A stretch of 41,330 nt of DNA, taken from Candidatus Nomurabacteria bacterium (GTDB lineage Bacteria > Patescibacteriota > Minisyncoccia > Phycocordibacterales > UBA9973). Shown here piece by piece: positions 292 through 37,344 of this stretch. The notes under the pieces were generated by a model. The model did no database searches. It was not told the origin of the DNA and saw nothing but the letters and a program-made list of their open reading frames with translations. The stretch lies in the NCBI GenBank assembly GCA_963832025.1, contig CAWHSF010000004.1, positions 1 to 41,330 on the forward strand. The letters are read 5' to 3'. Positions within the stretch are counted from its first letter, which is position 1. Each line of letters starts with the position of its first letter. Both the position numbers and the translations under genes were made by a program.

Positions 292-328
292 GATACGTTG
301 GATCCGAATTAAATGGGTACGAGGCAAC

Positions 329-3598: not shown

Positions 3599-3663
3599 AA
3601 AAACTTCAGCTTTCCTTCACAGTTTCCGAAAAGTCAGTCATAAGGATCCGCTAATCTCCCCCA

Positions 3664-4769
3664 ATGAAACCCAACTACTTAAGGCTCTTTTTTCTCTTTC
3701 TCCAGATCTATGTCCTCATACTATTCCTTTCGCCATTTTTGAGAACGGCGTTAGCTCTGAATGAAACTTTTGAAATCTATAATGCGCCTCAAAGCCTGGG
3801 AATGGGCAATGCACTCACCGCTGACGCAACTGGATACACGGCACTTTATCACAATCCGGCAGGGCTGGCTTCGTTCACGAAAAAGAAAATGGAATTGACG
3901 GTGGTGGATCTGGAGGGAATTCTTGGGCAAACGCCCTAGAACTTGCAGCCTCCGCTCAAACACTCGGTATCTACCGCCTCTTTAGCCCGATGGCAAAAAA
4001 CGCGGGAAAGTATACTTATTTTAACTGGGCCAGCGTCCCCTCCTTCACCGTCCGTGGCTTTGGTGTTTCGCTGCTGGGAAGCTATCAATACGCGGGTCTC
4101 TCCGATGGAACCAATATCGATATCGACGCGAATGAAGATGTCGGCATTGTCGCGGGGTATGCGAAATATTTTGCCGGAAACGTCATTAAGCTCGGAGTAG
4201 ACGTGAAGGGTCTTGTCCGAAACGAAATGAAGGGTGTTTACGCCTTTAGCACACTGGCGACTTACAACGATCAAACTTTTCCGTCGCTCTTTAGGGAAGG
4301 GGCTGCCGTCGGAGCGGACAGCGGAATGATTATCACTCTGCCAAACAACTGGCTGCCCACATTCGGCGTCGCCTGGAGAGATATGTTCAACACGCAGTTC
4401 ACCCACACCCATATTATTAATTCACGCGCCAGCGGGACTCCGGACAATATTGGACAGAGCATCAACACCGCTTTTTCCGTTCATCCCTTTTTCAGCCGCC
4501 AGTTAAAATCCACGATTGCCCTCGAGTATAAACACTGGGAAGCCCAAGACTGGCCTTTGAGAAAACACGTGCACTTTGGGATGCAGCTGGAGGATGAAAA
4601 AAGCCTCTACGCTTGGCTGGGACTGAATCAACTCTACTTAACCTTGGGCCTTGGGTGGAGGGTCAAAGGCGGTACACTGGAAGCCGGTACTTACGGTGAA
4701 GATGTCGGAGACAATAACAACCCCGTGCAGGATCGCCGCTTTTTCTTTCGTTACACTATTGGGTTCTAA
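3664..4769 (+). pseudogene. Signal-peptide beta-barrel outer-membrane protein, one frame break near 3925
   Basis: Hydrophobic N-terminus, motif GMGNALTADATGYTALYHNPAGLA, alternating beta-strand pattern, and C-terminal ...FFFRYTIGF (terminal Phe). ORFs 3664-3939 and 3990-4769 join via ...WANALELAASAQTLGIYRLFSPMAKNAG. Confidence 0.5.
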
Positions 4770-5866
4770 ATGAAACGAATACTTTTACTAATTTTCTTTT
4801 CCCAAATCGCAACTGCGCAACTCACGCATTTTGAATTTGAAGGAGTTAGACAGACCGGAATGGGAAATGCGGGGATCGCTATCGCCGATGATGCCAACGC
4901 CCTTTGGTATAATCCGGCCGGCCTGTCTCAGATTAAAAAAGTTCATTTCGATCTCTTTGACTTTACGCTCGGAGCGGACTCCTTGGATAGCCTGAATCGG
5001 ATGCAAAACGCTATCTTTCACGGCAATTACAGCAATATGCTCCGGCCCAACTCTGAGTTTTTGCGCTTTAACGTTACACCGACACTTGCGATCCCAAACT
5101 TTGCCCTTAGTCTTTTCGAGACGGCTCGGGGTTTTTTCGATCTCCAAAACCTGACCTCCCCCAATCTATCCTCCAGCGTCCAAGTGACAGCTCATAACGA
5201 TCTGGGCGCGATCGCAGGGATATCCATTCCTCTGCTGGATGTTTTCTCTGTTGGATTTTCGGTCCGCGCTTTTGAGCGTACGGGGCTCGACGTCAATCTA
5301 ACCGCACAAGACCTCATCAATCAAACGGGAACTTCCAACCCAACGACTCTACTCAACAATTTATACAGCTCCTTAAAAGATATGGCGGGAACCGGAACAG
5401 GGATCGGGTTAAACACAGGGGTTCTAGCACATATCCCCTTGCGCGGAAAAGCCGGGTACCGATTGAACTTAGGGGCCACCGTGGAAGATGTTGGAACACT
5501 TCGTTCACCAAAATAGGAAATCTCCCCCCTCCTCCATCGATACCCCAGAGCATTAACTTTGGGACTTCCCTGCAGTCTCCCATTGGAAAGAACTGGATCT
5601 GGAACAACACTCTCGATTACAGAAATTTTCAAGAGCATGACGCCGTTTTGAAACACATCCACTTCGGAACAGAAATTCGTCACGAGGTTTTTGGTTTACG
5701 TGCGGGAGTGTATGAAGGGTATTGGACCGCAGGCTTCAGCATCGAAACGCCTCCCCACACCAAGATCCACTTCTCGACGTATGCGGTGGAACTTGGAAAC
5801 GAACCCTTGCAACGGTCGCAACGATGGTATCTCGTGCAGCTGATTATTGGGTTTAATCCGCTGTAA
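4770..5866 (+). pseudogene. Paralogous beta-barrel outer-membrane protein, one frame break near 5505
   Basis: Starts one nt after the previous stop. Signal peptide MKRILLLIFFSQIATAQ and the same motif GMGNAGIAIADDANALWYNPAGLS. The tail continues in the frame of ORF 5648-5866. Confidence 0.5.
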
Positions 5867-5885
5867 TCTTTGTTTCCCTCGCCGC

Positions 5886-7046
5886 CTACCCGTAGATCAA
5901 TATTTTTAGATAATCCCCTTCCGGAAACCCAACCGGGTGATCGTCTTCAGGGCTTAACCCTTTGATCAATTTCAAAGTCCCCGAAAACTTTTTCCGCCTC
6001 ATTGCGAAACTTCGGTCTTGGGATTCGCGATGTGCAACAACACACAACGATTCTCCCGCCGGGGGAAAGATGTGGCAACGCCGCCTTGTAGAGTTGCCGG
6101 TACGCACGAAGGGCGTTTGGCACCTGAATCTTTTGGCTCGCCATCTGGGGAGGGTCGATGATGATGAGATCGAATTTCTCGTTGGGAGACATGGATTCGA
6201 TCCATTTAAAATATCCGCGCAGATCCATTTCTGATTTTTTTCGTTCAGACATGGTTCTGCTCGTCTCCAAAAACTCCCTGGGAAATATCGACGTTCCAGA
6301 TCTCGCTGGCTCCGGCGACTTCAGCGGCGAGACCCAACGTTCCTGAGTAGCTAAAAAGATTAAGCACTTTCTTTTTGGGGAGTTTTTCCATGGAAAGCCA
6401 TTTTCTTAGGCCCCGAAGATAGAGAAAGGTGCCGCTTTTTCTGCCCCGATCCAATCTCAACGGTGAGCTTGAGTTTCCCTTCTTGAAAAGACAGGGCAGG
6501 AGGAATTTTGCCGTAGAGGGCGGCGATTACGGGCCTTTGTTCCTCCAAAGTTTTTCGCTTCACCGGCGGTTTCCATACCATATTTTTTAATTTCAACTCG
6601 TCTCGCAGAATCCATGCCAGATAACGGCCCAAAGCATCCACCGCGTTCGAGTAGGTTTGCAAAACGGCCGAATCCCATAGACATCGATCACAATCCCGGG
6701 AAAACCATCATTCTCACCATGAATCGCGCGAAATGCCTCGGTATACTTCCTTAAGTTCTCACGCTTCTTAAGCGCCGTTTGAAGCTGAGAACGAAACCAT
6801 TCGGGACCGGGAGGATCTTTACCCTTTTTCAAAACGCGAATGCCAATAAGCCCTTCTTTTTCATAGATCCCATAGCCAACGACCTCATTCTTCGCATTCA
6901 CGATCTTAAGCCGATCGCCGTTTTTAAAACACATCAGCGGCACTGCTCAGATGGGTCCTAAAGATCCAGGGATGACCCGCATTCAAAACGATAATCGCGT
7001 CTTTCGTGGCTTGATAGCGCTTCGGGATGAGCTTTTTCGTACGCAT
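5886..7046 (-). pseudogene. rlmI: RlmI-like SAM-dependent rRNA (cytosine-C5) methyltransferase (PUA plus MTase), at least 4 frame breaks
   Basis: Fragments 6593-6943, 6360-6662, 6245-6460, 5947-6270 and 5886-6107. Motifs: NGDRLKIVNAKNEVVGYGIYEKEGLIGIRVL (PUA-like), AIHGENDGFPGIVIDVYG, KKVLNLFSYSGTLGLAAEVAGASEIWNVDIS (SAM site), FDLIIIDPP, and the tail ...DHPVGFPEGDYLKILIY. Confidence 0.6.
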
Positions 7047-7060
7047 AGAAGAAGGACAAC

Positions 7061-7938
7061 TTAGCCGAGGCGCGCTATAGGCTCAAGTCCCAATTTCAAG
7101 GGTGTAATAATCGTCGAAATAGCCTTGGAAGCAGAAAGATCCACCGCACCGAAAACCGCGGTCAGGCTAAAAAAGCTGAGCAGCGCCTCCCAGTGTCTCA
7201 ACCAGTCAGGAATAAAATGCGGAGGCTCGATAATCCCATGCGTTCTTAACCAGGCCAACGTTCCCACATCTTCCAGCGAAATCCGTCCGCAAACCAGGGC
7301 ATCTACGAGAAGGCGATTCTGGTTTTTCACCGCAATTCGGAGAAAATTATAAACACCCAGGTAACCCCGCGAGATACACCCCGTCTTTAGTAAACGGGCC
7401 TCCGCCAGTGAGCTTAGCGCCTCGAAAAACGCGCTGGGTGCTGAAAAATGCCTCCATCTCGGTTTCGCTTCGATCCTTATACCAACGGTAAGCTGCATCA
7501 AATCCGCACCTTGCTCCACTAAATCCAAAGCTTCAATTCGATAACATAGAGCCAAGAAACGGCGGTGGAGACATCGTGTGGCCGTACACACCTCATAAAA
7601 AACGGCAAGACCTTCTGGGTCATCGTCGTTGGGGTCCTCCCCCGGAATAAAAAATCGCAGGCGGCGTGGCGGGCCCCATTGTGTGCGGTAAGACAGTGGG
7701 ATTCGATTTCATGATCCAAAGCGCTGAAAGATCGATCGTGGAAAATCGGGCTTCTTTGCGCACGCGGACCCGGTTCATTCCGGCGACAACCTTCGCCACC
7801 ACCTGGTCGGTGACTTCCACTCGCACCGGCATCGTGGGCCTTCGCCCTGCAATTTCTTCTCTCCAACTCCCGCGCGAATTCGTCTGACGATTTCATGACG
7901 ATCGACTCGTCCATGTCGTTCAACGCACAGACGGACAT
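7061..7938 (-). pseudogene. Hypothetical protein with frame breaks
   Basis: Overlapping minus ORFs 7061-7591, 7620-7832 and 7519-7938 appear to be pieces of one gene. No family recognised. Confidence 0.25.
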
Positions 7939-8376: not shown

Positions 8377-8449
8377 ACCTGTCCCGTACTAAATTTCACT
8401 TAAAACAAAATGACCACTATTATTAACAATTTAAAATTTTAGTACTGGG
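8377..8449 (+). repeat. 73-nt intergenic hairpin cassette, copy 1 (family F)
   Basis: acctgtcccgtactaaattt...ttaaaattttagtactggg. The 5' arm cccgtactaaattt pairs with the 3' arm aaattttagtactggg (two 1-nt bulges). It fills the gap between the yqeY stop and the next ATG (8450). Confidence 0.8.
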
Positions 8450-9961: not shown

Positions 9962-10034
9962 ACCTGTCCCGTACTAAATTTTTGATTACGTGGATATGTC
10001 GCTAAACATTATTAGTTAAAATTTTAGTACTGGG
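9962..10034 (+). repeat. 73-nt intergenic hairpin cassette, copy 2 (family F)
   Basis: Same length and same conserved ends as 8377-8449, with a divergent centre. Ends at ggg directly before the obg ATG (10035). Confidence 0.8.
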
Positions 10035-11081
10035 ATGGCATTTATCGATGAAATAATAATATACGCAGAAGCCGGACGCGGCGGAAACGGTGTCGTGCGT
10101 TGGCGTCAGGAAAAATTTATACCAAAAGGCGGACCGGCCGGCGGAGATGCCGGGCGCGGAGGGGATTTTTACGTGCAAGCTGTCCGTGATATTCACGTGC
10201 TTTCAAAATACAAAGCAAAAAAAAGTTTTTCTGCCGGGCGGGGCGAGGACGGCGCAAATAAAAGCTTACATGGGAAAAATGGCATAGACTTATTTTTGGA
10301 GTTGCCGATTGGCTCTATCATCACCAATCTTGACACTGATGAATCTTGGCAATTGACTGAGGAAGGACAAAAAATATTAATTTTAAAAGGCGGATATGGA
10401 GGTTTTGGTAATGAACATTTTAAAAGTTCCACCAACACGACACCGAAAGAATGGCGACCGGGCGAAGAAGGTGAAAAAGGAAATTTTAGAATAGAGTTGG
10501 AGCTTTTTGCAGATATCGGATTGATTGGTTTACCAAATGCCGGCAAGAGCTCACTGCTCAATTCATTGACCAACGCGCAAGCGCGAGTAGGTGATTATGC
10601 TTTCACCACTCTTGACCCGAATTTGGGAGATTTTTATGGTTATATCATTGCGGACATTCCGGGAATTATCGAAGGTGCTTCGGAAGGCAAAGGTTTGGGT
10701 GTAAAATTTTTGCGTCATATCAAGCGTACTAAAATGCTTGCGCATCTTATATCTTTTGAGAACTTATCTAAAGGCAGCACCGGGATGATGAAAGTTTACA
10801 AAGATATTCGCAAAGAACTCGCCAAATACGACAAGAAATTAAATCTGGGAGTCGAAGGCTTGTCTGGAAAAAAAGAAATAATAATTTTGACTAAAAGCGA
10901 TGTGGTAGAAGATACCCGCCCGAACGACAATTCAGTCGGGCGGGAAAAAATCATTGAAAGGGAAATGAAAAAGTTTGAAAAACTCGGCGAAAAGGTTTTT
11001 GTAATTTCTTTATTTGATGATAAAATGATAAAAAAGTTCAGAGATGAACTGGTAAAAATTTTAAAGAAAGATGGCAAATAA
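10035..11081 (+). CDS. obg: GTPase Obg/CgtA
   Basis: N-terminal Gly-rich Obg fold (AGRGGNGVVRWRQEKFIPKGGPAGGDAGRGGDFY) and G motifs GLPNAGKSSLLN and DIPG. Confidence 0.9.
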   Translation: MAFIDEIIIYAEAGRGGNGVVRWRQEKFIPKGGPAGGDAGRGGDFYVQAVRDIHVLSKYKAKKSFSAGRGEDGANKSLHGKNGIDLFLELPIGSIITNLDTDESWQLTEEGQKILILKGGYGGFGNEHFKSSTNTTPKEWRPGEEGEKGNFRIELELFADIGLIGLPNAGKSSLLNSLTNAQARVGDYAFTTLDPNLGDFYGYIIADIPGIIEGASEGKGLGVKFLRHIKRTKMLAHLISFENLSKGSTGMMKVYKDIRKELAKYDKKLNLGVEGLSGKKEIIILTKSDVVEDTRPNDNSVGREKIIEREMKKFEKLGEKVFVISLFDDKMIKKFRDELVKILKKDGK

Positions 11082-13514: not shown

Positions 13515-14058
13515 AAATGAAGAAATAATTTTTCAAGGGAAGATGATAGAAATTGTTCACGAAACAGTTTCTTCAAATGGAAAAGAAATTATTTTAGAAA
13601 AAGGCAGACGTGCGCCGGGAGTCAGATTGATAATCAAAACTCCTGATAGCGGATTTTTAATAACCAAAGAACAAAGGTTCGACAAAGGTTTAGATTATCG
13701 TTTGCCAGGTGGAAAAGTTTTTGATTCTTTAATTGAATATAATAATTTTAAAAAAAATGCCGTAAATATTTTAACGAAGGCAAAAGAAGCTGCAATAAAA
13801 GAAGGCATGGAAGAAGCTGGAATCAAGCCTGTTGAAATGGAATTATTTTGTATTTCCAAATGTGGTGGGAGTTTTGATTGGGATTTATACTATTTTATAG
13901 TTGAAAAATATGATGAAGTCGGTCAAAATTTGGAAGAGCACGAAAAAATTGAAGTCATGAAAATTTCTCGTGAAGAATTAAAGAAATTAGCGTTGTCTGG
14001 TAAGATGAAAGAAGATAGAAGTGTGGCGGTGATATTAAAATATTTAAATAAGAATTAA
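13504..14058 (+). CDS. NUDIX-family hydrolase
   Basis: LPGGKV...AKEAAIKEGMEEAGI is Nudix-box-like. Overlaps the fba stop and shares TAATG with the next gene. Confidence 0.6.
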   Translation: MQNRNEEIIFQGKMIEIVHETVSSNGKEIILEKGRRAPGVRLIIKTPDSGFLITKEQRFDKGLDYRLPGGKVFDSLIEYNNFKKNAVNILTKAKEAAIKEGMEEAGIKPVEMELFCISKCGGSFDWDLYYFIVEKYDEVGQNLEEHEKIEVMKISREELKKLALSGKMKEDRSVAVILKYLNKN

Positions 14059-15788
14059 TGACAGAATCCAAAACTCCAAAATTTGATACATTGATGGATA
14101 AAATCTTGGGCGAAATGGTTCCTCATTCAAAAGTCTGCGCGGATTGTAAAAAAAAATTTGAAGTTGAGCCAGAAGATATAGTGTTCTATAAAATGTTCCG
14201 AGTTCTTGCTCCAAAACTTTGTCCGGATTGCAGGCAAAGACGCAGACTTTCTTTTGGGAACTATTCCAATATTTATAAACGCAAATGCGATTTTCCCGGA
14301 CACACCGATATTATGATTTCTCCCGTCGCACCAGTAATGCCTTGGGTGACATACGACCACGAGACATATTATTCGGATGTTTGGGATCCTTTTTCTTATG
14401 GGAAAAATGTTGAAGAAAATAAATCCTTTTTTGACCAGTTTCTGGATTTACTAAAAGTAATTCCTCAGCCTGGTGTGCGTCGTGATCCAAGTTCTGTCAA
14501 TAGCGATTTTAATTTTTACGGAAAGGATATGAAAGATTGTTATTATGTTTTCGGTGGCCGAAGCTCAGAAGATATAATGTATAGTTCTTCGATTTATAAG
14601 TCTAGGCATGTCGTGGATTCTTATTTTCTTAAAAAGGTTGATACAGCTTTTAGTTCCGCAAGAACAACTGATTCTTTTAATGTTAAATATGCTTATTTTT
14701 CAATGAATTGTATTGATTGTGATTTTATTTATGATTGCCGTAACTGCCAAAATTGTTTTGGTTGCGTAAATCTCAGAAATAAAAATTATTGTTGGTTTAA
14801 TGAACAGCTTTCCAAAGATGAATATCAAAAAAGAAAAGAGGGGATTGATTTAGGCAGCCGTAAGGTTGTCGATGATTTTACAAATAAATTTTTTGACATC
14901 GTAAAAGAAAATCCAATACGCGCTACTAGAATTTACAAATCACAAAATGTTTCTGGCGACGATATCATCACTTCCAATAATTGTCAAAAATGTTTTCAAG
15001 TAGAAAATGGTGATAATTTGAGATATGTAGCGCTTGCAATCGTAGGATTAAAAGATTCAATGGATATGGGTTATTCTGGTGGAGCGGAACGCATCTATAA
15101 TTCTCAGAATACAGGTGACAAGTCTGCTAATGTCAAATGTTCTTTTGCCACCAAAGAATCTGTCGATTGTGAATACGTGATGTCTTGTAGAAATTGCCAA
15201 AATTGTTTTGGTTGTGTGGGACTGAGTAATGCTTCTTACACAATTTTTAATAAAAAATACAACCCAGAAGAATATTGGAAAATATTGGACGAAATAAAAA
15301 CAAAAATGTTGCAAGAAGGTATTTACGGAGAATTTTTTTTGATGACTTTTTCGCCTATTGCTTACAATAGTTCTTTAGCAAATATAATTTTTCCAATGAC
15401 AGAAATCGAAGCAAAAAAACGCGGGCTCTTCTGGCAACCGGAAACAGATGTTGAAATGAAGAATTTACAGAACATCGAGGCGGATAAATTACCTGACAAT
15501 ATCAAAGACATAAATAATGAAATTTGTAAATTTGCGATTATCGGAAAAATCTCTAAAAAACCGTTTAAAATTACTGAAAGGGAATTAAATTTTTACAAAC
15601 AAAACAACATACCATTACCAACTGACACACCCTATCAGCGTATAATTGATCGCTATAAGGTTTTAAATAATTTTCAGATTTATCAAGAGAATTGTTTTTC
15701 TTGTGGAAAAGAAATTGAATCATCATATCGAAAATCAGATGGATATAAACCGTTTTGCGAACAATGTTATCAACAAAGAGTGTTATAA
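14058..15788 (+). CDS. Cys-rich zinc-ribbon repeat protein (conserved hypothetical)
   Basis: N-terminal CADCKKKFEV..EDIVFYKMF...LCPDCRQRRRL. Two internal C(R)NCQNCFGCV(N/G)L repeats. C-terminal FKITERELNFYKQNNIPLP...CFSCGKEI...CEQCY. Confidence 0.6.
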   Translation: MTESKTPKFDTLMDKILGEMVPHSKVCADCKKKFEVEPEDIVFYKMFRVLAPKLCPDCRQRRRLSFGNYSNIYKRKCDFPGHTDIMISPVAPVMPWVTYDHETYYSDVWDPFSYGKNVEENKSFFDQFLDLLKVIPQPGVRRDPSSVNSDFNFYGKDMKDCYYVFGGRSSEDIMYSSSIYKSRHVVDSYFLKKVDTAFSSARTTDSFNVKYAYFSMNCIDCDFIYDCRNCQNCFGCVNLRNKNYCWFNEQLSKDEYQKRKEGIDLGSRKVVDDFTNKFFDIVKENPIRATRIYKSQNVSGDDIITSNNCQKCFQVENGDNLRYVALAIVGLKDSMDMGYSGGAERIYNSQNTGDKSANVKCSFATKESVDCEYVMSCRNCQNCFGCVGLSNASYTIFNKKYNPEEYWKILDEIKTKMLQEGIYGEFFLMTFSPIAYNSSLANIIFPMTEIEAKKRGLFWQPETDVEMKNLQNIEADKLPDNIKDINNEICKFAIIGKISKKPFKITERELNFYKQNNIPLPTDTPYQRIIDRYKVLNNFQIYQENCFSCGKEIESSYRKSDGYKPFCEQCYQQRVL

Positions 15789-15797: not shown

Positions 15798-17645
15798 ATG
15801 AACAAAGAAATAAGAATTCAATTACGTAATTTTTTTAAAGGGGATATAGATGATAGTGAAGCGACACTCGTGCAATATTCTCACGATGCGAGCTTACTTG
15901 AAGTAAGACCAAAACTAGTGCTTTTTCCGCAAGATTCGGAAGATGTAAAAAATTTAGTGAAATGGGTTTCAGAGAATAAAGAAAAATATCCTGAGCTTTC
16001 CATTACGGCTCGTTGCGCGGGGACAGATATGTCCGGCGGAGCAATCGGGGAATCAATAATTTTGGATTTCACAAGATATATGAACAAGTTGATAAGTTGG
16101 AACCAGCTCCCAAAAAATTCTTCCGGATTACTCTACCCTGCGGGTGGAACCTTCCCCGTTCAGAATTCTTTGGAAGCTCATTCCATTACTGTTCAACCCG
16201 GAATGTTTTATAGAGATTTTGAAAAAATTACTTTAGGAAAAGGTTTAATTTTACCTTGTTTCACCGCCTCAAAAAGTATAAATGCTGTAGGCGGAATGTT
16301 TGGAAATAATTCTGCCGGGGAAAGAACTTTGAAATATGGAAAGACGGAAGATTACGTTTTAGAAGCTAAAGTCATATTTGCTGATGGAAATGAGTACCTT
16401 GTAAAGCCACTCAGTCGCGATGAATTGAATAAAAAAATGTCGCAAGGGGATTTCGAGGGAAATGTTTATAAAAATATTTTTGATTTGATAAATAAAAATG
16501 AGGACGAAATAAGATTAGCCAAGCCAAAAGTTCATAAAAATTCAGCCGGATATTATATTTGGAATGTGCTAAGTCCGGAGCCGAAGAAGAATTTTTTGGC
16601 TTTCCTCCAGCCTTCGGCCGGAACCTTCCGCCAGCAAAATTCTCCTTCGGCTCCTGCCATGCAGAGCGATAATTATTTTAATTTAAACAAATTGTTGGTT
16701 GGTTCGCAGGGAACATTGGGAATTGCGACCGAAATTACCTTTAAAGTAATACCGGACAATAAACATTCTAAACTTGTCGTGATATTTATGGAAGATATGG
16801 CGCCCCTCGGCAGATTGGTGGATGAAATTTTGACTCTTAATCCGGAAACACTAGAAACTTATGATGACAAAACGATGAAACTGGCAGTAAAATTCTTTCC
16901 GGATTTTTTAAAGAATAAAGGCTTTATTGGCATGTTTAAATTCATGTTATCTTTCTTGCCGGAATTTTTTATGATGGTCACCGGTGGTTTTCCGAAATTA
17001 ATTATTCTGGCCGAATTTGCTGGCGTTGACGAAGAAGACGTAAATGAAAAATGTGTAGCACTGGTGGAGAAAATAAAAGACTTTAAATTAAAAGTTCACA
17101 TCACTAAATCCGAAACAGAGGCAAGTAAGTATTGGGATATCAGGAGAGAAAGTTTTGCCTTGCTCCGAAAGCACATAAAAGGTATGCGCACTGCTCCATT
17201 TATAGACGATATTATTGTTCGTCCGGAATTTTTGCCTAAATTTCTTCCGGAATTAAACAGTATTTTGGTAAAATATCCCAGTTTGACTTATACCATCGCT
17301 GGTCATGCCGGAGATGGAAATTTTCACATCATTCCATTGATGGATTTCAAGCGTCCTGATACCGCTCAGATAATCCTAGAATTAGGAGAAAAAGTTTATG
17401 ATTTGGTCATAAGATATCATGGTTCTATAACCGCCGAACATAATGATGGTTTAATCCGTACGCCATATTTACGCAAAATGTATGGAGATAAAATCATTCA
17501 AATTTTTACCGAAATTAAGAAAATATTTGATTCGAAAAATATTTTTAATCCCGGTAAGAAAATTGCTACAGAAAATCTCGGTGGAACAAAAGACTACATT
17601 AGAACGCATATTGCCGAAGAGCATGATGCGGTGCACAAAGTTTAA
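15798..17645 (+). CDS. FAD-linked oxidase (GlcD / D-lactate dehydrogenase family) carrying two in-frame palindromic inserts
   Basis: Intact 615-aa ORF. FAD-binding region ...ITARCAGTDMSGGAIGESIILDFTRYMNK... and C-terminal ...AGHAGDGNFHIIPLMD...GSITAEHNDGLIRTPYL. Confidence 0.75.
   Translation: MNKEIRIQLRNFFKGDIDDSEATLVQYSHDASLLEVRPKLVLFPQDSEDVKNLVKWVSENKEKYPELSITARCAGTDMSGGAIGESIILDFTRYMNKLISWNQLPKNSSGLLYPAGGTFPVQNSLEAHSITVQPGMFYRDFEKITLGKGLILPCFTASKSINAVGGMFGNNSAGERTLKYGKTEDYVLEAKVIFADGNEYLVKPLSRDELNKKMSQGDFEGNVYKNIFDLINKNEDEIRLAKPKVHKNSAGYYIWNVLSPEPKKNFLAFLQPSAGTFRQQNSPSAPAMQSDNYFNLNKLLVGSQGTLGIATEITFKVIPDNKHSKLVVIFMEDMAPLGRLVDEILTLNPETLETYDDKTMKLAVKFFPDFLKNKGFIGMFKFMLSFLPEFFMMVTGGFPKLIILAEFAGVDEEDVNEKCVALVEKIKDFKLKVHITKSETEASKYWDIRRESFALLRKHIKGMRTAPFIDDIIVRPEFLPKFLPELNSILVKYPSLTYTIAGHAGDGNFHIIPLMDFKRPDTAQIILELGEKVYDLVIRYHGSITAEHNDGLIRTPYLRKMYGDKIIQIFTEIKKIFDSKNIFNPGKKIATENLGGTKDYIRTHIAEEHDAVHKV
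16106..16177 (+). repeat. Palindromic element family A, copy A1 (in frame in the FAD oxidase)
   Basis: Arms gctcccaaaaaattc / gaattctttggaagc (13 of 15 complementary). Core ttccggattactctaccctgcgggtggaaccttcccc. Translated LPKNSSGLLYPAGGTFPVQNSLEA. Confidence 0.8.
16577..16654 (+). repeat. Palindromic element family A, copy A2 (in frame in the FAD oxidase)
   Basis: Arms ggagccgaagaagaatttt / aaaattctccttcggctcc (18 of 19 complementary). 78 nt. Translated EPKKNFLAFLQPSAGTFRQQNSPSAP. Confidence 0.8.
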
Positions 17646-17648
17646 GCA

Positions 17649-17732
17649 CTAGATGTTGGACATCTGCAAAGCAGGTGTCCAACATCGGGCTCCAGACGTC
17701 CAACGTCTTTTGACTTTTGCTAGATGTTCGGT
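17649..17732 (+). repeat. Nested palindromic element family D, copy D1
   Basis: Starts 4 nt after the oxidase stop. 16-bp hairpin 17652-17686 (gatgttggacaTctgc aaa gcagGtgtccaacatc), a second hairpin agacg tccaa cgtct, and direct repeat ctagatgtt at both ends. Confidence 0.8.
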
Positions 17733-17738
17733 TATACT
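17710..17738 (+). promoter_or_regulatory. Sigma70-like promoter for rplY (TTGACT-17-TATACT), ATG 7 nt after the -10
   Basis: ttgact 17710-17715, 17-nt spacer, tatact 17733-17738, ATG at 17746. This implies a leaderless or near-leaderless mRNA. The promoter lies inside element D1. Confidence 0.5.
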
Positions 17739-17745: not shown

Positions 17746-18414
17746 ATGTTTACAATCAAAGCGCAAAAGAGAAATGAGGACGTCAAAGTGGACGCGCTCA
17801 GAAAAGCAGGTGAAATTCCAGCTGTTTTTTATGGTGCTGGGAAAAAATCCACCTCGATTACGCTTTCAACCGTCGAATTTAAAAAAATCTGGCGCGAAGC
17901 AGGAGAATCTTCCGCTATTTCAGTCAAGACTCCAGAAGGAAGCGTGGACGTACTGATTCACGAAGTACAAGTTGACCCAGTGACGGACGAACCTATACAT
18001 GTGGATTTTTTGGCAATAGATATGAAAAAGAAAATTCGAGTTTCTGTCCCGCTCATTTTTGAAGGTGTTTCCAATGCAGTAAAAAGTGGAATTGGCAATC
18101 TGGTAAAAGTTCTTCACGAAATTGAAATTGAAGCGTTGCCAGCCGATTTACCACACGATCTTATTGTTGATATTTCTTCTCTTGAAGGTTTGGAAAACCA
18201 AGTTTTTGTTTCTGATATAAAACTTCCAGCCGGAGTCGTGGTCATCACCAATCCTACCGAAGTGGTGGCTTCCATTGTTGCTCAAGTTGAAGAAAAAGAA
18301 GAAGTAGTTGCACCGGTTGATTTGTCTGCAATTGAAGTGGAAAAGAAAGGCAAGAAAGAAGAGGAAGGCGAAGTTGCTACCGCAGAAGCTGCACCTGTGC
18401 CAGAAAAAAAATAA
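17746..18414 (+). CDS. rplY: 50S ribosomal protein L25/Ctc
   Basis: MFTIKAQKRNEDVKVDALRKAGEIPAVFYG...IHEVQVDPVTDEPIHVDF... with an acidic/Lys-rich tail. The track ORF start at 17653 reads through element D1 and is unlikely. Confidence 0.85.
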   Translation: MFTIKAQKRNEDVKVDALRKAGEIPAVFYGAGKKSTSITLSTVEFKKIWREAGESSAISVKTPEGSVDVLIHEVQVDPVTDEPIHVDFLAIDMKKKIRVSVPLIFEGVSNAVKSGIGNLVKVLHEIEIEALPADLPHDLIVDISSLEGLENQVFVSDIKLPAGVVVITNPTEVVASIVAQVEEKEEVVAPVDLSAIEVEKKGKKEEEGEVATAEAAPVPEKK

Positions 18415-18454: not shown

Positions 18455-19829
18455 ATGGGGAAAAAATCCATAGTTTTTATTTTACTTTTTTCGATGCTGG
18501 GTTTAATAACTGTTTCAGTCTTTTTTGGTACCAAAAGCATACGCTGATTTTGACTGTCTGACTCTCAGTCCTGCTTCTACGTCAGCGGATAAAACTTACT
18601 GTGAGAACCAACTCAATCAAATAGAAGCGGAACTAAATACCTTACTTGCAGAACAGGCAGCTCAACAAAAACAAACCGGAACTCTCAAAGGAGATGTGGA
18701 TTATTTGGCTAGCCAGATTAATGCTCTTAAGGTAAAAATACAAGCTCAATCACTGGTCATAGCCCAACTAGGTGTAGCAATTGTAGACAAAACAAATACA
18801 ATTACTTCTCTCTCAAATAAAATTGATAGTGAAAATGAATCTTTAGCTCAACTTCTCCGAAATACGAATGAATTTGATAATGAGAACATAGTAAACTTAG
18901 TTCTTTCCGATAATTCCATCTCTACTTTTTATAGTGATTTAGAATCATATAATTCAATACAGCAAGCAGTCAAAAGTTCGGTGGATGAAATAAATCCATA
19001 AAGGCACAAACTGAAATTGCTAAAACTGACCTTCAAAAACAACAAAATGCTGAAACGGATGCAAAAGCCGAATTGCAAACTGCTCAACAACAAATAGCCA
19101 TATCCGAGGCAAATCAAAAAAAGCTTTTGGCAGTTTCTCAGCTAAAAGAAAGCGCTTATGCGCAACTCGCAGCACAGAAAAAAGCTCAAGCGGATGAAAT
19201 TCGTGCCGCCTTGTTTAGTTTGGCTGGTACTTCGCAAAAAATTGATTTCGGCACCGCGCTAACTTATGCAAATCAAGTTTCAGCCAAATTAAATGTAGAG
19301 CCTGCTTTTCTACTCGCAATCATTACCCAAGAAAGCAATTTAGGCGCAAACGTTGGTCAATGTTATCTTACAGATCCAAACACTGGTGCTGGAGTGGGAA
19401 AAACTACAGGAACATATTTTGCAAATGTCATGCATCCAACACGCGATGTTCCTCCATTTTTAAGCATCACAAGCGATTTTGGGCTCAATGCTTTTAAAAC
19501 AGCTGTATCTTGTCCAATTGCCGGTGCTGGTGGTTACGGTGGCGCCATGGGGCCAGCACAATTTATTCCTTCAACTTGGGAACTTTTTGCTCGCTAGATT
19601 ACAAACTCTCTTGGGATACCAAGCAAATCCATGGTCTCCACTTGATTCTTTCATGGCTTCCGGAATGTATTTGAGTGACCTGGGCGCAGTAGGAAATAGT
19701 GCCAGTGCCCAAAGTAGAGCTGCTTGTAAATATTATGGTACCGGTGGCTCTTCTTGTTCTTATAGTCGAAGTGTGATGAAGCTGGAAGCAAGTATTCAAG
19801 CCAACATAGACGTACTCAATACTCCATAA
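18455..19829 (+). pseudogene. Secreted coiled-coil / lytic-transglycosylase-like murein hydrolase, 3 frame breaks
   Basis: Signal peptide MGKKSIVFILLFSMLGLITVSVFF (break in T6 run at about 18520), a long coiled coil, then EPAFLLAIITQESNLG...GAMGPAQFIPSTW (SLT-like catalytic Glu context), continued in ORF 19479-19829. Confidence 0.6.
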
Positions 19830-20251: not shown

Positions 20252-21224
20252 ATGACTTTTGATTTAGAAGAACTTAAGAAAAATCACAATACCAGCTATC
20301 TGGCGGGTGTTTTGGAGCGCTTGGCGCGCGAAGAAGCGGAAGTTCGTGAGATGCTTGATAGTGATGAAACGTTTACATGAACTAGCGGCAAAAGAATTGT
20401 TTTCCATTCAGGAAGAAAGAACAAGAACCGAAAAACAAATTCAAGATATTCTAGATAAAGACAAAGAAGCGGAAGAATTTCCCAACGAAATAGTTTTGGA
20501 AGTGCGAGCTGGAGCCGGTGGAGATGAAGCCTCACTTTTTGCTTGGGAGCTTGCGCATATGTACGAAAAATATTCCGAAATAGAAGGCTGGCAATGGAAA
20601 GTAAATTATGAATCAAAGAGCGATTTGAATGGATACAAAGAAGCCAGTTTTGAAATAAAAGGTAAAGACATTTTTAAAAAATTAAGATATGAAACGGGTG
20701 TACATCGTGTCCAGAGAATTCCGGCGACAGAAAAAAATGGACGGGTGCATACTTCTACGGCATCGGTGGCAGTGTTTCCAATTCGTAAAAAAGTAAATTT
20801 TGTAATCAATCCGGCAGAATTTGAAATGGAATATTCTCGCTCCGGAGGAAAGGGCGGGCAGAATGTAAACAAGGTTGAAACAGCCGTGCGCATTATTCAT
20901 ATACCGACCGGGCTCGATGTGCGCTCCACAAATGAACGCAGCCAGCTGGCAAATCGTGAGAAGGCGATGATGATTTTGACGGCGAAACTTCAGCAGTTGG
21001 AAGAAGAAAAAGAAGCGAGCAAGCATGCCGGCATTCGCAAAAATCAAATTGGCACCGGCGACCGTTCGGAAAAAATCCGTACTTATAATTTTTCGCAAGA
21101 TCGCGTGACCGACCATCGTATCAAAAAATCTTGGCACAATTTGCCAAAAATTATGGAAGGAGAAATAGGAGAAATAATTGAATCCTTAAATTCTGGCGTG
21201 GTGGGGGATGAAGAAGAGGAGTAA
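20252..21224 (+). pseudogene. prfA: Peptide chain release factor 1, one frame break near 20375
   Basis: MTFDLEELKKNHNTSYLAGVLERLAREEAEVREMLDSDE then frame change into ORF 20307-21224. Contains RIPATEKNGRVHTS (PxT, RF1-type) and SGGKGGQNVNKVETAVR (GGQ). Confidence 0.85.
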
Positions 21225-25050: not shown

Positions 25051-25476
25051 ATGGCCACAATTTCAAACAATGACATAGCTCGTGCAATATATTTATCGAC
25101 AAAAGATAATAATTTGGAGGTCTTGCCTCCAAGTGGAGGCAAGACTTCCAAATATGCCAACATCGTTCAATTTTTATACAGGAAAAGATTATTGTTGCAA
25201 GCCCCAGACATTCTTTCTCGCTTGGACAAAATAATTAACGAAGCGGACGGAAGGATTGTGGTCAAGTTATCAAGCAAAGAACATTTAACAGAAAACATCA
25301 AAAAAGAAATCGCGCAAATTTTAAAAGAACGTTATGCAGCAGAAAAAATTATTTTCGTAGAAAGTTTAAATGAAAAATTGCTTGGAGGATTTAAAATAGA
25401 AGTAAATGATGAAGTAATAGATTTAACAATCAAAAACAAAATTGGAAAATTACAAGAATATTTAACATCATACTTT
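25051..25476 (+). CDS. atpH: F0F1 ATP synthase subunit delta (short); no stop codon before the atpA ATG
   Basis: ...LLGGFKIEVNDEVIDLTIKNKIGKLQEYL is a typical OSCP C-terminus. The reading frame continues directly into atpA. Confidence 0.7.
25114..25151 (+). repeat. 38-nt palindrome inside atpH
   Basis: ttggaggtcttgcctcca ag tggaggcaagacttccaa (17 of 18 complementary), read as LEVLPPSGGKTSK. Confidence 0.7.
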
Positions 25477-26981
25477 ATGAGCACAAACCATATCGTAGAA
25501 AATTTAAAAAAGGAAATAGAAAATTTTTCCGCTCAAATCAAAGTTGAGAAAGTCGGCAAGGTACTGGAACTTTTCGACGGTATTGCCAAAGTTTCCGGAC
25601 TTTCCGATATTAAATCTTCCGAAATGGTGACTTTTCCAAATGGTGAGACGGGTGTGGCGCTAAACTTAGAAGAAGATACCGTTGGCATAATTATCTTTGG
25701 TGATTTTTCTAAAATTAAAGAAGGAGATGAAGTAAAAGCCACCGGTAAAATTTTGGAAGTTCCCATCTCTGATGCCATTTTGGGTACGAGTGGTAAATGC
25801 AATCGGTGCTCCGATTGATGGTAAAGGCGCAATTAAAGCAAATAAAACTTATCCAATTGAAAAAGTTGCATCCGGGAGTAATTACTCGTCTAAAAGTGAT
25901 CAACCGATGGCTACAGGCATCAAAGCGATTGATGCAATTATTCCGATTGGAAGTGGCCAACGAGAACTCATCATCGGAGATAGACAGACTGGTAAAACAG
26001 CCATTGCCATTGATACAATTTTAAACCAAAAGGGTCAAAACATGATTTGTGTTTATGTTTCTATTGGACAAAAAGATTCCAAACTTCGCAAAATTACAGG
26101 CAAGATTGGAAGCTGGTGGAGCTATGGAATATACGGTAATCGTTTCTGCAGGCGCTTCGGAAGCTGCAGCGCTTTCTTATATCGCTCCTTATACTGGAGT
26201 TTCTATTGCTGAATATTTTATGGACCAAGGCAAGGACGTTTTGATTATTTACGATGATCTTTCCAAACACGCTGTGGCTTATCGAGAAATTTCTCTTTTA
26301 CTTCGACGCCCTCCAGGCCGTGAAGCATATCCTGGAGATGTCTTTTATTTGCACTCACGTTTGCTTGAACGTGCTTGTCGCAAGAACGAAAAGTATGGTG
26401 GTGGGTCTATTACTGCTTTGCCGATAGTGGAGACACAAGCCGGAGATGTGTCCGCTTATATTCCGACCAATGTCATTTCCATCACGGATGGACAGATTTT
26501 TTTGGAGACAGATTTATTTTATAAAGGCATTCGTCCAGCAGTAAATGTCGGTCTTTCTGTTTCTCGCGTCGGTGGAGATGCTCAAATCAAAGCGATGAAG
26601 AAAGTCGCCGGTAACGCTCAAGCTGGATCTTGCGCAATTTCGAGAACTAGAAGCTTTCGCGCAATTCGGTTCCGACCTCGATGAATCAACTAAGCGTCAG
26701 CTTGAACGTGGCAAGAGAGCAGTGGAAGTTTTAAAACAGCTTCAATATTCGCCGATTAAAGTTGAAAACCAAGTTGTGACCCTTTATGCTCTCACCAAAG
26801 GCTACATGGATGATGTTGCGGTTGAAAAAATAAAAGAATTTGAAGAACAACTCGCTTCAATACGCAGAACACAATGCAAAAATTTTCTTCAAAGAAGTTA
26901 GCTGAGAAAAAAATGTGGACCGAAAAAGGTGAAGAAGAATTAAAAACAGTAATTGGAGATTTTAAAAAGAATTTTAGTTAA
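25477..26981 (+). pseudogene. atpA: F0F1 ATP synthase subunit alpha, at least 5 frame breaks
   Basis: MSTNHIVENLKKEIENF..., [87 protein letters not shown], and ITDGQIFLE are found in different frames. Confidence 0.9.
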
Positions 26982-27947: not shown

Positions 27948-29340
<1,393 letters not shown>

Positions 29341-29455: not shown

Positions 29456-29902
29456 ATGTCAAAACAATTAAAATTAAAAATAATAACACCCGAGAGACTC
29501 ATCATTGAAGAGATGGTTGACCAAGTAACTTTGCCAACCACGGAAGGTGAAATTACGATTTTACCTGACCATATTCCATTAATAGCATCACTTGCTTCTG
29601 GAGACATAGTTGCTGTGTCTGGTGGAGAACACATACCTTCGGCAGTTGTCGGAGGTTTTGTTGAGGTGAAAAAAGACGAAAAAGGTGAGACCTCAGTTAC
29701 CGTGCTGGCAGATTTTGCCGAGGCGGTTTCAGAATTAACCGAAGAAAGAGTGGAAAAAGCTAGAGCTAGAGCCGAGGAACTTCGCAAGCAGATGGACAAT
29801 AAAGAAGTTGTTGATTTCGAACATTTTTCTGCCGAACTTGAAAGATCACTCAATCGGGTAAAAATTGCCGATAAATGGAGAACAAGAAAATATAGAAAAT
29901 AA
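29456..29902 (+). CDS. atpC: F0F1 ATP synthase subunit epsilon
   Basis: LKLKIITPERLIIEEMVDQVTLPTTEGEITILPDHIPLIASL... Confidence 0.85.
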   Translation: MSKQLKLKIITPERLIIEEMVDQVTLPTTEGEITILPDHIPLIASLASGDIVAVSGGEHIPSAVVGGFVEVKKDEKGETSVTVLADFAEAVSELTEERVEKARARAEELRKQMDNKEVVDFEHFSAELERSLNRVKIADKWRTRKYRK

Positions 29903-30600
29903 TGTCTAAATTTTATGTAATTGCGACACCGATAGGGAACTTGGGAGATATTACTCTCCGAGCCATAGAGACATTAAAAAGTGTTGATTTGATATTGTGC
30001 GAAGATACACGTGTCACAAAAAATCTTTTAAATAAATATAATATCAATAAGCCTACGATGAGTTACCATGCTCAGAGTAAACTCAGTAAAACTGAGAAAA
30101 TTTTTGAATTACTGGAGGAAGGCCTGCCTGCCGGCAGGCAGGGAAAAAATTTAGCTTTAGTGTCAGACGCAGGAACACCAGGAATTTCTGATCCTGGCGC
30201 GATGTTGATTTCTCAAATTAAAAAAAAGTTTAGTGAATCAGAGGTTCAGATAATTCCGATTCCTGGAGCCACAGCTATCATCACAGCGCTTTCTGCTTCA
30301 GGTTTACCAACTCATGAGTTTACATTCTTGGGGTTTTTACCACACAAAAAGGGGAGAGAAACTTTATTTAAAGAAATAGCGGAAGCTAAAAGAACAATGG
30401 TCTTTTATGAATCCCCTCATCGTATTTTAAAAACCCTGGAATCTTTACAAAAATTTTGTCCAGATAAAAAAGTTTGTATTGCTCGAGAGCTCACAAAAAT
30501 TTATGAAGAATTTAAAACTGGAACACCCACTGAAGTATTGGAATATCTAACAAAAAATCCAGTGAAACAAAAAGGGGAGTTTACGGTTTTAATTGCCTAA
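29902..30600 (+). CDS. rsmI: 16S rRNA (cytidine1402-2'-O)-methyltransferase with a 7-aa palindrome-encoded insert
   Basis: FYVIATPIGNLGDITLRAIETLKSVDLILCEDTR...ALVSDAGTPGISDPG...YESPHR. Confidence 0.85.
   Translation: MSKFYVIATPIGNLGDITLRAIETLKSVDLILCEDTRVTKNLLNKYNINKPTMSYHAQSKLSKTEKIFELLEEGLPAGRQGKNLALVSDAGTPGISDPGAMLISQIKKKFSESEVQIIPIPGATAIITALSASGLPTHEFTFLGFLPHKKGRETLFKEIAEAKRTMVFYESPHRILKTLESLQKFCPDKKVCIARELTKIYEEFKTGTPTEVLEYLTKNPVKQKGEFTVLIA
30123..30142 (+). repeat. 20-nt perfect GC palindrome family B, copy B2 (in frame in rsmI)
   Basis: cctgcctgccggcaggcagg read as LPAGRQ(G), between ...LLEEG and KNLALVSDAGTP. Confidence 0.75.
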
Positions 30601-30893: not shown

Positions 30894-32875
30894 TTATAGT
30901 AAATCTTCCGGGTCAACTAATACTTGAAAAGACATTGGAAGAGAAAGCAATTTTGCCAGCAGGTTTTCGTCAATATGTGAATTCATGGAAATTTCCGGCA
31001 GTGACCATTTTTTTGGATCTAATTTTATTAAAGCATTAGTAGTATATTTCTCCTTTTGCTTGGCTATAAAGGCGCTAAAAATCTCGGGCTTATACTCTTT
31101 AAAAACTTCTTCCAGTGCTTTTCTGGCTTTGATTGTTTCTTCTTTATTACCGATATAAGTAATTTTAATAAAACGTCTGAAGGGCGGATAATTTAATTTT
31201 TTTCTATCTTCCAACTCTTCTCGCACAAATGACAACAAATTACCGGATTTTATTGCCAAAATAGAAGTGTCATGTTCGTTTTTTGTTTGGATAATTATTT
31301 TTTCATTCGTATGGCTCATAATTGAAAGTATGATGTGAATAATTCTTTCACCCATTTTAAAATTCGGGATACTCCACAAAGAATCAAAAGAAGCGACAAT
31401 AGATAGCGCAACTTTTTTTTGTAAGTAGAAAAACGCCATTTCTGTGCCGATTAATATTGACCCTGAATTTTCTTCAAACTCTTTTATGATTTTCTCTGCA
31501 CCCTTGGTGGTTTTTGCCGATTCTTTATCCAATTTAAAAATTTTTATTTTTTGGTCAAACACTTTCTCTATTTCTTCATAGATTGTATCTATGCCGATAC
31601 CAAGTGGCATCAAGTTCCAGCTGCCACAATTTTCACAAGCTACGTCTCCATCTACATCTATCTCACAGCGATTACAGACAAAAATTCTTTTTTTATTTTT
31701 CTGTGAACTATAAAGTACAAGTGGCGACCCACATTTTTTACAGCTCAAAGTGTCGTTACAGTCTTTACAAACAGTCATTGTCGCTAAGCCCTTTCGTAAT
31801 GCAAAAATAAAGATACTTTTATTATGAAAAACTGCATTTTTTATTTCTCTCAAACTCTCTTCCGGGAATATTTTAAAGACAGGATTCTTATTCTCTTTTA
31901 CGGGCGTTACATTTTCTTTCTTCATGTTCTTATCAATAATTTCTATTTTTCCTTTGAAATTGGTTCTGAACTGTAAAGGATGAAATGGGGTTAAATTATC
32001 AATATCTTTTCTTTCAATTGTTTCGAGGCGAAGCATTGTGTCGCTTAAAATAAATCTAGCGTTAATTTTTGCTGCAAAAATTCTGCAAAAAATCGCAAAT
32101 CAAAATGAGGTTTAGCTATCATTTTATAAGCGTTTGAGCTTTCGTGTTCTACTATGATGGTCTTTATATCATCTCGAGGAATTGATAAAAAAGGTGTTGT
32201 TCCCAATATCAATATCGGGTGATTCATGATTTCCATCTCTTCAAAATCCTTGAGTATTTTTTTGGGAGTCAAGCTTCCATGTAGAGTAAAGATGAATTGT
32301 TCAATACCTCGAGAAAGTAATCCTTCAAATATTTTTATATCGTATTCGGTCGGTAATACAATAAACACCGACTTTTTTTCTGCGAATGCTCCACGAATCA
32401 AAGTTTTATAAGTAGCAATTCGGTCCAAAAATGGTGCTTGAAAAATTAACTTTTCGGATTTAATTAATTTTGAACTGCTCTCTTTTTTCTTGTCTCTTAA
32501 ATCAGCATTTACTAATTTAGCTATTTTGTCGTAATTTTCCCGCAATGGTGCCGGAATCAAAGCAGTAATCCCATAGTTTTTACTAACAGCAAAATATCTA
32601 CTGGTTTCAATCGCTGCGTGCAAATATTCTGCCGAAAAAATTGAAGTTTCTTTTACTTCACTTATTTTTTTTAAATTAAAAGACATCCCCTTAATATTGG
32701 ATTTTGATTGGGTTGCGTCTTCCACAGAAATTACCAAACCCAATACTTTTTTGTTGCGTAGGGGAATAGTAACAATACTTCCGTTTGTAATATCTTTCGC
32801 CGTAAAATAAGTTAAATTTTCCTTCCAAATTCCTTTTTTGAGCGGAATGACTGTGACAATTTTCATGTTTTTCAT
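30894..32875 (-). pseudogene. priA: PriA-like primosomal protein N', one frame break near 32075; Walker A not recognisable
   Basis: ORFs 32045-32902 and 30894-32036 join via ...FAEFL(A)AKINARFILSDTMLRLETIERK (T5 run). The Cys-rich Zn region CKDCNDTLSCKKCGSPL...CNRCE...CENCGS is retained. The Walker A position reads LIFQAPFLDRIATYK. Confidence 0.7.
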
Positions 32876-32892
32876 TTTAGCACAAATATGAT

Positions 32893-32938
32893 ATACCCTC
32901 ACACCTATTTCCTTGATTTTAAATAGGTGTCGGGGTAT
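32893..32938. promoter_or_regulatory. 18-bp inverted repeat in the divergent priA/mreB control region
   Basis: ataccctcacacctattt (32893-32910) and aaataggtgtcggggtat (32921-32938), 16 of 18 complementary. The right arm overlaps the mreB spacer and -10 hexamer (ttgatt 32913-18, 17 nt, tatatt 32936-41). Confidence 0.5.
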
Positions 32939-37305: not shown

Positions 37306-37344
37306 TTAAAATTTGCAAAAAAATGGAGTTATCCACAGTATTTT

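Follow-up and report, generated by a model that had tools for sequence, protein, structure and literature searches.

A dispersed REP-like palindromic repeat family abuts the putative rplY promoter in a Paceibacterota bacterium

Between the gene for a flavin adenine dinucleotide (FAD)-linked oxidase and rplY, which encodes ribosomal protein L25, a 41.3-kb contig of Candidatus Nomurabacteria bacterium (CAWHSF010000004.1, positions 1 to 41,330; referred to at its full length as the window) carries a nested palindromic element. We found that this element, designated copy A, includes a member of a dispersed and structured palindromic family (family D) that is gained and lost among related genomes without target duplication. 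The reading that we favor, with a probability of roughly 65%, is that family D is a lineage-specific, selfish family akin to the repetitive extragenic palindromic (REP) sequences and bacterial interspersed mosaic elements (BIMEs) and to the Rickettsia palindromic elements (RPEs), and that at this locus it abuts the rplY promoter and furnishes the 3' hairpin of the oxidase transcript. An earlier sequence-only reading had proposed that a module resembling a REP or a miniature inverted-repeat transposable element (MITE) carries the rplY promoter itself.

From about 8 kb onward, the window matches a Paceibacterota bacterium of the candidate phyla radiation (CPR, or Patescibacteria). Homologues of the L25 protein number in the hundreds and are named Paceibacterota, Pacebacteria, or Nomurabacteria, the closest being 89% identical. 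An exact search for the oxidase protein of the window returned no record. Family D was compared across the three window copies (A, B, and C), two loci of one related metagenome-assembled genome (MAG), and one Joint Genome Institute (JGI) metagenome that contributed six core copies and many relatives in the flanks; the core pattern was located only in this MAG and this metagenome. Loci retrieved from related genomes or the metagenome bear L numbers (L001, L003, L014, and so on). The region upstream of rplY was aligned in eight relatives, and Pfam searches covered some of the genes in the window and the retrieved loci.

The building block of family D is a 15-nt quasi-palindrome, AGAYGT-TGG-ACRTCT. 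With up to two mismatches allowed, the unit AGAYGTTGGACRTCT occurs seven times in the window against 0.19 expected, always inside copies A (orientations +, -, -), B (-, +), and C (+, -). Units are mostly arranged as inverted pairs around alternative centers, among them GCAAAGC (the core), GTC-AAGATTCCCA-GAC, and GTCCGATTTCCTGAC; single units exist, and isolated ones are rare. The resulting elements are 37 to 80 nt long and palindromic end to end, and L003 (2340-2406) shows that a hairpin may sit nested within another's loop. In 12 aligned core copies, 97.5% of the cells were paired, a T.G pair was kept in 11, and compensatory changes were seen at two positions (C-G to T-A in three copies and A-T to G-C in one). 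A covariance model built from these 12 copies was run on 218 kb, comprising the window and the related loci. It gave 47 hits at about 23 distinct sites, most of which scored on both strands, and revealed new copies in L109 and L111 as well as a fourth, diverged member of the window inside atpD. Copy B is identical in a near-identical strain (L108), and the orthologue of copy C in L109 and L111 has a compensated center (CTGC/GCAG to CCGT/ACGG). The search of Rfam returned no match at the gathering threshold, and a permissive search gave one chance-level hit. The core pattern was not found in viral contigs; the 15-nt unit gave 86 single matches there, one per contig (L022-L101), which we took to be chance.

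Copies of family D occupy different loci among related Paceibacterota genomes, as a search with the core pattern revealed, so the suggestion of a dispersed, REP- or MITE-like family held up. The empty sites that it had called for also were found at orthologous junctions. At the junction of the oxidase gene and rplY, D is present in the window, unrelated GC-rich hairpins are present in L016/L017 and L018, and the site is empty in L021. Between the SLT gene and rpmE, L003 carries a nested D and L021 a remnant, L006 carries another hairpin, and the window, L018, and L001 are empty. The mreB-holB junction is filled in the window and L108 and, by a diverged copy, in L111, and is empty (TAAttATG) in L109/L110. 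Conversely, a stop/start overlap at 29899-29904 of the window is empty there and holds a 58-nt D insert in L109. Both of the clean filled/empty pairs (mreB-holB and the 29902 junction) lack a target duplication. One lake metagenome containing the source organism yielded contigs of about 150 nt, none of which crossed copy A.

Most copies lie 0 to 13 nt downstream of a stop codon, and by our own count 13 of 14 co-directional intergenic copies are closer to the stop than to the next start; in several cases the TAG of the element is itself the stop codon. The earlier observation that members sit after stop codons thus holds for these copies and fails for others, which lie in frame within open reading frames (ORFs), the fourth window member in atpD included. 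Some copies also lie between divergent starts. Only about half of the copies have their T.G side on the sense strand, so orientation is random relative to transcription, which argues for a DNA-level element. We had considered the G.U wobble as a sign of RNA-level function and rejected it, as the wobble strand is independent of the direction of transcription. Copy B is intercistronic in the manner of REPs inside operons, given that the mreB-holB junction is only 2 nt in L109.

The features described for copy A from the letters alone (a 29-nt core, a 16-bp hairpin, a second hairpin, a ctagatgtt repeat, and TTGACT-17 nt-TATACT ending 7 nt before the rplY ATG) are all in the sequence. Its start had been placed 4 nt after the oxidase stop; we place it at 17646, directly after TAA, because the same GCACTAGATGTTGGAC end recurs in L014 (4930-4976). 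The core hairpin consists of two inverted 15-nt units, with 17652-17667 pairing with 17671-17686 over 16 bp, one T.G included (hairpin 1). The 29-nt core GTTGGACATCTGCAAAGCAGGTGTCCAAC is found at 17655-17683 and, within copy C, at 37259-37287, both on the + strand and without mismatches (0 expected in 100 shuffles). Core hairpin, GGGCTCC linker, and a lone reverse unit (hairpin 2) together resemble the nested form of L003 without its outer left arm. The 100 nt past the oxidase stop fold unusually well both as RNA (-39 kcal/mol, z = -5.8) and as DNA (-20.7 kcal/mol, z = -5.6), and in neither case was any of 200 shuffles as good. It had been stated that no member is followed by a U tract. This does not apply to hairpin 2, whose stem is only 6 bp and which is followed by TTTTGACTTTT; a terminator scan flagged the two together as terminator-like. 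Hairpin 1 and most other D copies have no T run in the sense direction.

Inspection of the rplY upstream region in the eight relatives does not support the proposal that the element carries the promoter. TTGACT-17 nt-TATACT agrees with the two sigma-70-type consensus hexamers at 10 of 12 positions, but 21 such matches were counted in 7 kb against 20 expected, so a consensus match alone means little; the support for this promoter is its conservation in relatives. TATACTG, followed 6 to 7 nt on by ATGTTT, is present in all eight, whatever the upstream gene (an aldolase, an oxidase, or another), and a -35 lies 16 to 17 nt from the -10 in each. Four of them (L021, L018, L016, and L006) have no element at rplY and a -35 of the form TTGC(T/A)T. 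In L001, L003, and L017, a different element of 61 to 65 nt, designated P, is inserted exactly at TATAC, with no D at that site. The terminal inverted repeats of P are 14 nt long (CCCCCACACCTATT/AATAGGTGTGGGGG), and those of L003 differ in a compensatory manner; P reads, in order, as a small inner hairpin, TTTTGACTTTT, and a right repeat that forms the 17-nt spacer to a duplicated TATAC(T). L017 differs from L016 by an additional 66 nt (P and the TATAC repeat) between flanks that are about 92% identical. Spacers vary among the four sequences with a P-type module, and TTTTGACTTTT is invariant. When the window sequence (TTTTGACTTTT-GCTAGATGTTCGGT-TATACT) is aligned to the right end of P, both hexamers (-35 and -10) match exactly, and 9 of the 14 spacer positions agree.

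Since the -10 and ATG are found in all eight relatives, element-free ones included, and the -35 and spacer match P in loci free of D, the rplY promoter does not belong to family D. By these alignments, its -10 is ancestral and its -35 and spacer derive from P. The -35/-10/ATG arrangement is conserved and typical of leaderless mRNA, and the promoter is presumably active. The stretch from 17646 to 17732 is thus composite, with a D mosaic in front and a P-type promoter module behind it. Upstream of rplY, the window lacks the left arm of P and the old -35, and hairpin 2 sits where P in the relatives has its small inner hairpin. The spacer (17719-17732) can pair, with apparent compensatory changes, with 17677-17690, that is, with the 3' arm of hairpin 1 and the linker, so that 17677-17732 folds like P in relatives (an outer stem, an inner hairpin, and an open -35). 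The ctagatgtt repeat (17649-17657 and 17720-17728) would then be a P arm converging on a D arm, as both pair with 17677-17690. We rejected the repeat as a target duplication, its left copy being the D arm and its right copy the P-type spacer. A second P-type element of the window lies at the mreB promoter, where TTGATT in its loop precedes by 17 nt a -10, TATATT, that follows the element; a P-type copy in L014 is flanked by ATAA. We also noted an inverted-repeat module, CCCGTACTAAATTT ... AAAATTTTAGTACTGGG, at about 8385-8449 and 9970-10034, that runs right up to the start codons of two genes (ATG at 8450 and 10035) and may be a further promoter-associated palindrome.

Perfect matches to the DnaA-box consensus TTATCCACA were found eight times in the 218 kb against 1.7 expected (among them window 37329-37337; L109 13201; L111 8670 and 8774; L010 3641; L015 2371; L014 2567), and seven of the eight are within about 45 nt of D or P. 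A DnaA box 8 nt upstream of the ddl -35 is conserved in three lineages, and in L111 a D composite is flanked by two inverted boxes.

In the reading that we favor, family D would spread or be exchanged at the DNA level, by a mode that leaves no target duplication, and its copies would survive where they are harmless, namely, in the gap from a stop codon to the promoter that follows, where genes converge, and, in a single frame, within tolerant protein loops. At copy A, the oxidase transcript would end in a very stable 3' stem-loop of about 16 bp that begins at the stop codon. Hairpin 1 may act like a REP stem-loop in blocking 3' exonucleases and possibly in interfering with the terminating ribosome, and hairpin 2 with the T-rich flank of the -35 may constitute a weak terminator-like signal; together they would protect or end the oxidase mRNA and insulate rplY, which would be transcribed from its own conserved leaderless promoter. 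L018 has the same compact design, with a strong hairpin followed by TTGCTTTTT, which also is the -35. P, for its part, is predicted to insert at TATA(C), that is, into -10 boxes, and to bring a -35 at the right spacing.

Five copies of family D lie in frame within housekeeping genes, in purD, topA, and, twice, an ftsQ-like gene of relatives and in atpD of the window. PurD carries an extra segment of about 19 amino acids at the copy relative to a solved PurD structure, and the product of the ftsQ-like gene is an ftsQ-type POTRA protein. All five are read in the same frame, ..DVG(R/H)..(R/C)PTS.., for which the chance is about (1/3)^4. The D consensus has no stop codon in any frame, and therefore ORF callers read through it. 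The suspicion that the longer L25 start at 17653 merely translates the element was confirmed, in that homologues of L25 are about 222 amino acids long and align only from MFTIKAQ. Similarly, the true start of holB is the ATG at 34019 (MNLIQYLDK...), and the long-ORF start at 33965 translates copy B; the gene caller used for the near-identical strain made the same error (P0121, 272 amino acids).

Other palindromes also were seen within genes. In the AtpD loop that has the D-related insert in the window (28251-28297), L006 carries a different palindrome at 20290-20340, CTGCCCGCTCCCGAC..GTCGGGAGGGCAGGCGGG, read as PAPDQSGGQAGG. A 62-nt palindromic family lies in frame at 16111-16172 and 16585-16646, giving inserts of 20 and 31 amino acids in the FAD-linked oxidase that are absent from the L019 orthologue, and a third copy, located inside holB (34601-34682), has perfect inverted arms of 21 nt. 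A third family, CCCGCCCGA...TCGGGCGGG, is present in the window at 10908-10944, 36969-37005, and 40292-40328. The first of these adds 10 amino acids in frame to Obg, an insert that L001 and L006 lack, and the copies in the M24 peptidase and alanine racemase genes lie at or near frame breaks.

The same data were weighed against other explanations. The hairpins could be primarily functional, as factor-independent terminators, 3'-end stabilizers, or intercistronic attenuators, kept by selection and made similar by conversion rather than by mobility. Differing GC-rich hairpins do occupy the same slot between stop and -35 (L016, L018, and the window at oxidase-rplY; L006 at SLT-rpmE), TTGCTTTTT follows the L018 hairpin as TTTTGACTTTT follows hairpin 2, and both the compensatory changes in an orthologous copy and the 13 of 14 copies nearer a stop would be expected. 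Orthologous sites with no hairpin at all (L021 at oxidase-rplY, L109 at mreB-holB, and the window at SLT-rpmE) speak against it, as do copies in ORFs and between divergent starts, the T.G side, which coincides with the sense strand no more than about half of the time, and the lack of a U tract in the direction of transcription at most copies; we consider this explanation unlikely. Less credence still is due to the idea that a single mobile module, spanning 17649-17732 and delimited by ctagatgtt, arrived upstream of rplY with a promoter of its own. In its favor, the 9-nt direct repeat does occur at both ends with the -35 in between, and promoter-bearing MITEs such as Correia are known (PMC10969869). 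However, neither TTTTGACTTTT nor a second ctagatgtt was seen in any other D copy, the left repeat belongs to a hairpin arm common to L014, the -10 is ancestral and lies outside the repeats, and relatives free of D at this site share the -35, spacer, and -10.

It is quite improbable that the 15-nt unit is a protein recognition word, either a DNA-uptake signal like the DNA uptake sequence (DUS) of Neisseria and the uptake signal sequence (USS) of Haemophilus or the site of a dimeric DNA-binding protein (a 6-3-6 palindrome). Such a word would fit arms that are more conserved than the centers across diverged genomes, inverted pairs after genes, and ORF copies in a fixed frame. CPR bacteria generally carry competence and pilus genes, and one copy lies between a T2SS-F/PilC-like gene and a pilin-like ORF. 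Against this, entire hairpins, loops included, are identical between loci, the density is about 1 per 4 to 13 kb instead of roughly 1 per kb, single units seldom stand alone, and literature searches found no link. Integron attC-like recombination sites, to which we assign almost no weight, were suggested by the fit of GTTGGAC to GTTRRRY and of GTCCAAC to RYYYAAC and by the placement of elements directly after stop codons. The order of the core motifs is nevertheless reversed (GTTRRRY 5' and RYYYAAC 3'), the neighbors are housekeeping genes in conserved synteny rather than cassettes, copies lie inside purD, topA, and atpD, and neither the window nor the fetched loci showed an integron integrase.

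Several observations weigh against a selfish D family adjoining a promoter that is not its own. No transposase, REP-associated tyrosine transposase (RAYT), or other partner enzyme was identified in the window and loci among the genes searched with Pfam. The number of D copies per genome is an extrapolation, at about 1 per 4 to 13 kb. Selection for function, rather than selfish spread, could account for the compensatory change in an orthologous copy and for a T.G pair that is almost universal, and a stem-loop lacking a clear U tract is not a canonical terminator. TTTTGACTTTT also is found at other promoters (22502 and 37343), and the homology of the -35 to P is carried mainly by the adjoining spacer; the 9/9 identity of the ctagatgtt repeat is explained by inference only. 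The RNA runs covered distant relatives only, with no reads over the rplY promoter or the hairpins.

A neighboring gene (14058-15788) encodes a Cys-rich protein of 576 amino acids with repeated CxxC and CRNCQNCFGC motifs and no Pfam, NCBIfam, or Protein Data Bank match. We considered it as a partner enzyme and rejected it, as no family or structure match was found. Homologues with 33% identity (L013 9934-11673; L015 654-2384 and 2425-4068) are flanked by family D elements; this association is weak, as the L013 and L015 loci were retrieved through the element.

We also entertain, with considerable doubt, the notion that palindromic modules of this clade replace one another in fixed hairpin slots, which would be located just past stop codons, near -35 boxes, and at particular surface loops in essential proteins. 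Its basis is a few loci (oxidase-rplY, SLT-rpmE, and one AtpD loop) where different palindromes sit at the same position in different lineages; moreover, the promoter-in-a-hairpin shape (outer stem, inner hairpin, open -35, and -10) persists in the window, although D sequence now makes up both stems. If true, this would imply that an enzyme recognizing the conserved stem with its T.G pair directs insertion or conversion to hairpins, and also that modular terminator/promoter cassettes are selected for in ultrasmall genomes.

Table 1. Features of the window discussed in the text
Feature	Position	Strand	Remarks
FAD-linked oxidase gene	15798-17645	+	ORF list; Pfam FAD_binding_4 and FAD-oxidase_C
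TAA stop of the oxidase gene	17643-17645	+	ORF list
Copy A, core hairpin, 'GATG' subtype	17646-17686		GCAC TAGATGTTGGACATCTGC AAA GCAGGTGTCCAACATC; covariance model 64.3 bits, E = 8e-20
Copy A, linker GGGCTCC	17687-17693		Appears to resemble the loop AAGGCTCCCA/AAGATTCCCA of 'type 2' members (window copy B; L014 11376)
Copy A, hairpin 2	17694-17708		AGACGT-CCA-ACGTCT; lone reverse-orientation unit, 0 mismatches; T-rich run next
-35 TTGACT	17710-17715	+	Inside TTTTGACTTTT, which is invariant in window, L001, L003, and L017
Promoter spacer GCTAGATGTTCGGT	17719-17732	+	Homologous to right terminal repeat of P (AATAAGTGTTCGGG in L003); holds second ctagatgtt
-10 TATACT	17733-17738	+	7 nt before ATG (leaderless arrangement)
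rplY (ribosomal protein L25/Ctc, 222 aa), true start	17746-18414	+	Pfam Ribosomal_L25p and TL5_C; homologues 222 aa
Fourth, diverged family D member	28251-28297		Inside atpD, in frame; covariance model 21.9 bits, E = 1.4e-4; Pfam ATP-synt_ab
Second P-type element (mreB promoter)	32896-32935	+	CCCTCACACCTATT-(TTGATT in loop)-AATAGGTGTCGGGG; flanked TATA/TATA
Family D copy B	33962-34012		Between mreB and holB; own TAG is the mreB stop; holB ATG at 34019
Family D copy C	37255-37303		6 nt past stop (37246-37248) of M24 peptidase gene (here 'pepP'), upstream of ddl promoter; core as in copy A

Two further observations concern the window as a whole. Positions 1-7900 have about 50% GC, compared with 33 to 42% for the remainder of the contig, and encode fragmented outer-membrane-type proteins (OEP/TolC-like at 986-1600, FadL/TodX at 4770-5516, and MATCAP-like at 7061-7938); as this content is unlike that of a CPR bacterium, it may reflect foreign DNA or a chimeric contig. 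In addition, housekeeping genes that are single in relatives (those for an SLT-domain protein, ATP synthase subunits, M24 peptidase, and alanine racemase, and priA) are broken into two to four overlapping ORFs (18525-19829, 25051-26898, 36494-37248, 39794-40967, and 30894-32902), reflecting either indel errors of the assembly or pseudogenes.

Genomes of the CPR usually are described as streamlined, and literature searches found no report of REP-, MITE-, or RPE-type repeats in this group. Between them, this contig and the related loci harbor no fewer than four families of palindromes. Several occur in frame in essential genes, as in Rickettsia, and P appears to land in -10 boxes and to rebuild a leaderless promoter there. 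Such elements, being open in all frames, mislead gene callers, as the overlong starts of L25 and HolB illustrate. They also mark strain-level variation and offer testable candidates for transcription-unit boundaries in organisms that lack genetics.

Compared with known systems, family D is closest to the REP/BIME class in having many copies of short, imperfect palindromic units in alternating orientation, with few linker types, placed after stops or between cistrons and without target duplication. REPs stabilize upstream mRNA and, within about 15 nt of a stop codon, affect translation termination. D differs in that its unit is only 15 nt, with the consensus (C)TAG-A(C/T)G and no GTAG/CTAC tetranucleotide, in that it is not strictly extragenic (five in-frame copies), and in its host, a CPR bacterium with a very small genome in which no RAYT was seen in the window or loci by Pfam searches of some genes. 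As in Neisseria DUS and Haemophilus USS inverted pairs, which act as terminators, a conserved word (10 to 15 nt in those systems) is paired just after genes and also found in coding regions; in D, however, the loops are conserved too, the density is about 10-fold lower, and single words are rare.

RPEs are palindromic repeats of a reduced genome that lie in frame in unrelated housekeeping genes and add a conserved peptide (PMC10969869), much as the copies of D in purD, topA, the ftsQ-like gene, and atpD add ..DVG(R/H)..(R/C)PTS... RPEs are longer (about 100 to 150 bp, compared with 37 to 80 nt), and most copies of D are intergenic. We regard their sequences as unrelated, D having no match in Rfam or to another family; this was not a direct comparison with RPE consensus sequences. 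Pneumococcal BOX, RUP, and SPRITE are small repeats that insert into one another and cluster intergenically, SPRITE being terminator-like (PMC10969869). D shares the nesting and, only partially, the terminator-like members; sequences and sizes are different, and in-frame coding copies are not reported as a rule for these repeats. Of the features of MITEs derived from DDE transposases, D has terminal inverted repeats and presence/absence polymorphism and lacks a target-site duplication, whereas P has 14-nt terminal repeats and target duplications of TATAC (L017 versus L016), TATA (mreB), and ATAA (L014). It is P, not D, that resembles the Correia elements (CREE), with terminal inverted repeats, a short AT-rich target duplication, and an outward sigma-70-type -35 that makes the promoter of the adjacent gene; P differs in its size (about 40 to 130 nt), in landing in a -10 box, and in reusing the duplicated TATAC(T) as the -10 of a leaderless mRNA. 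Family D is a new family of a known kind of repeat, like REP/BIME and the RPEs of Rickettsia.

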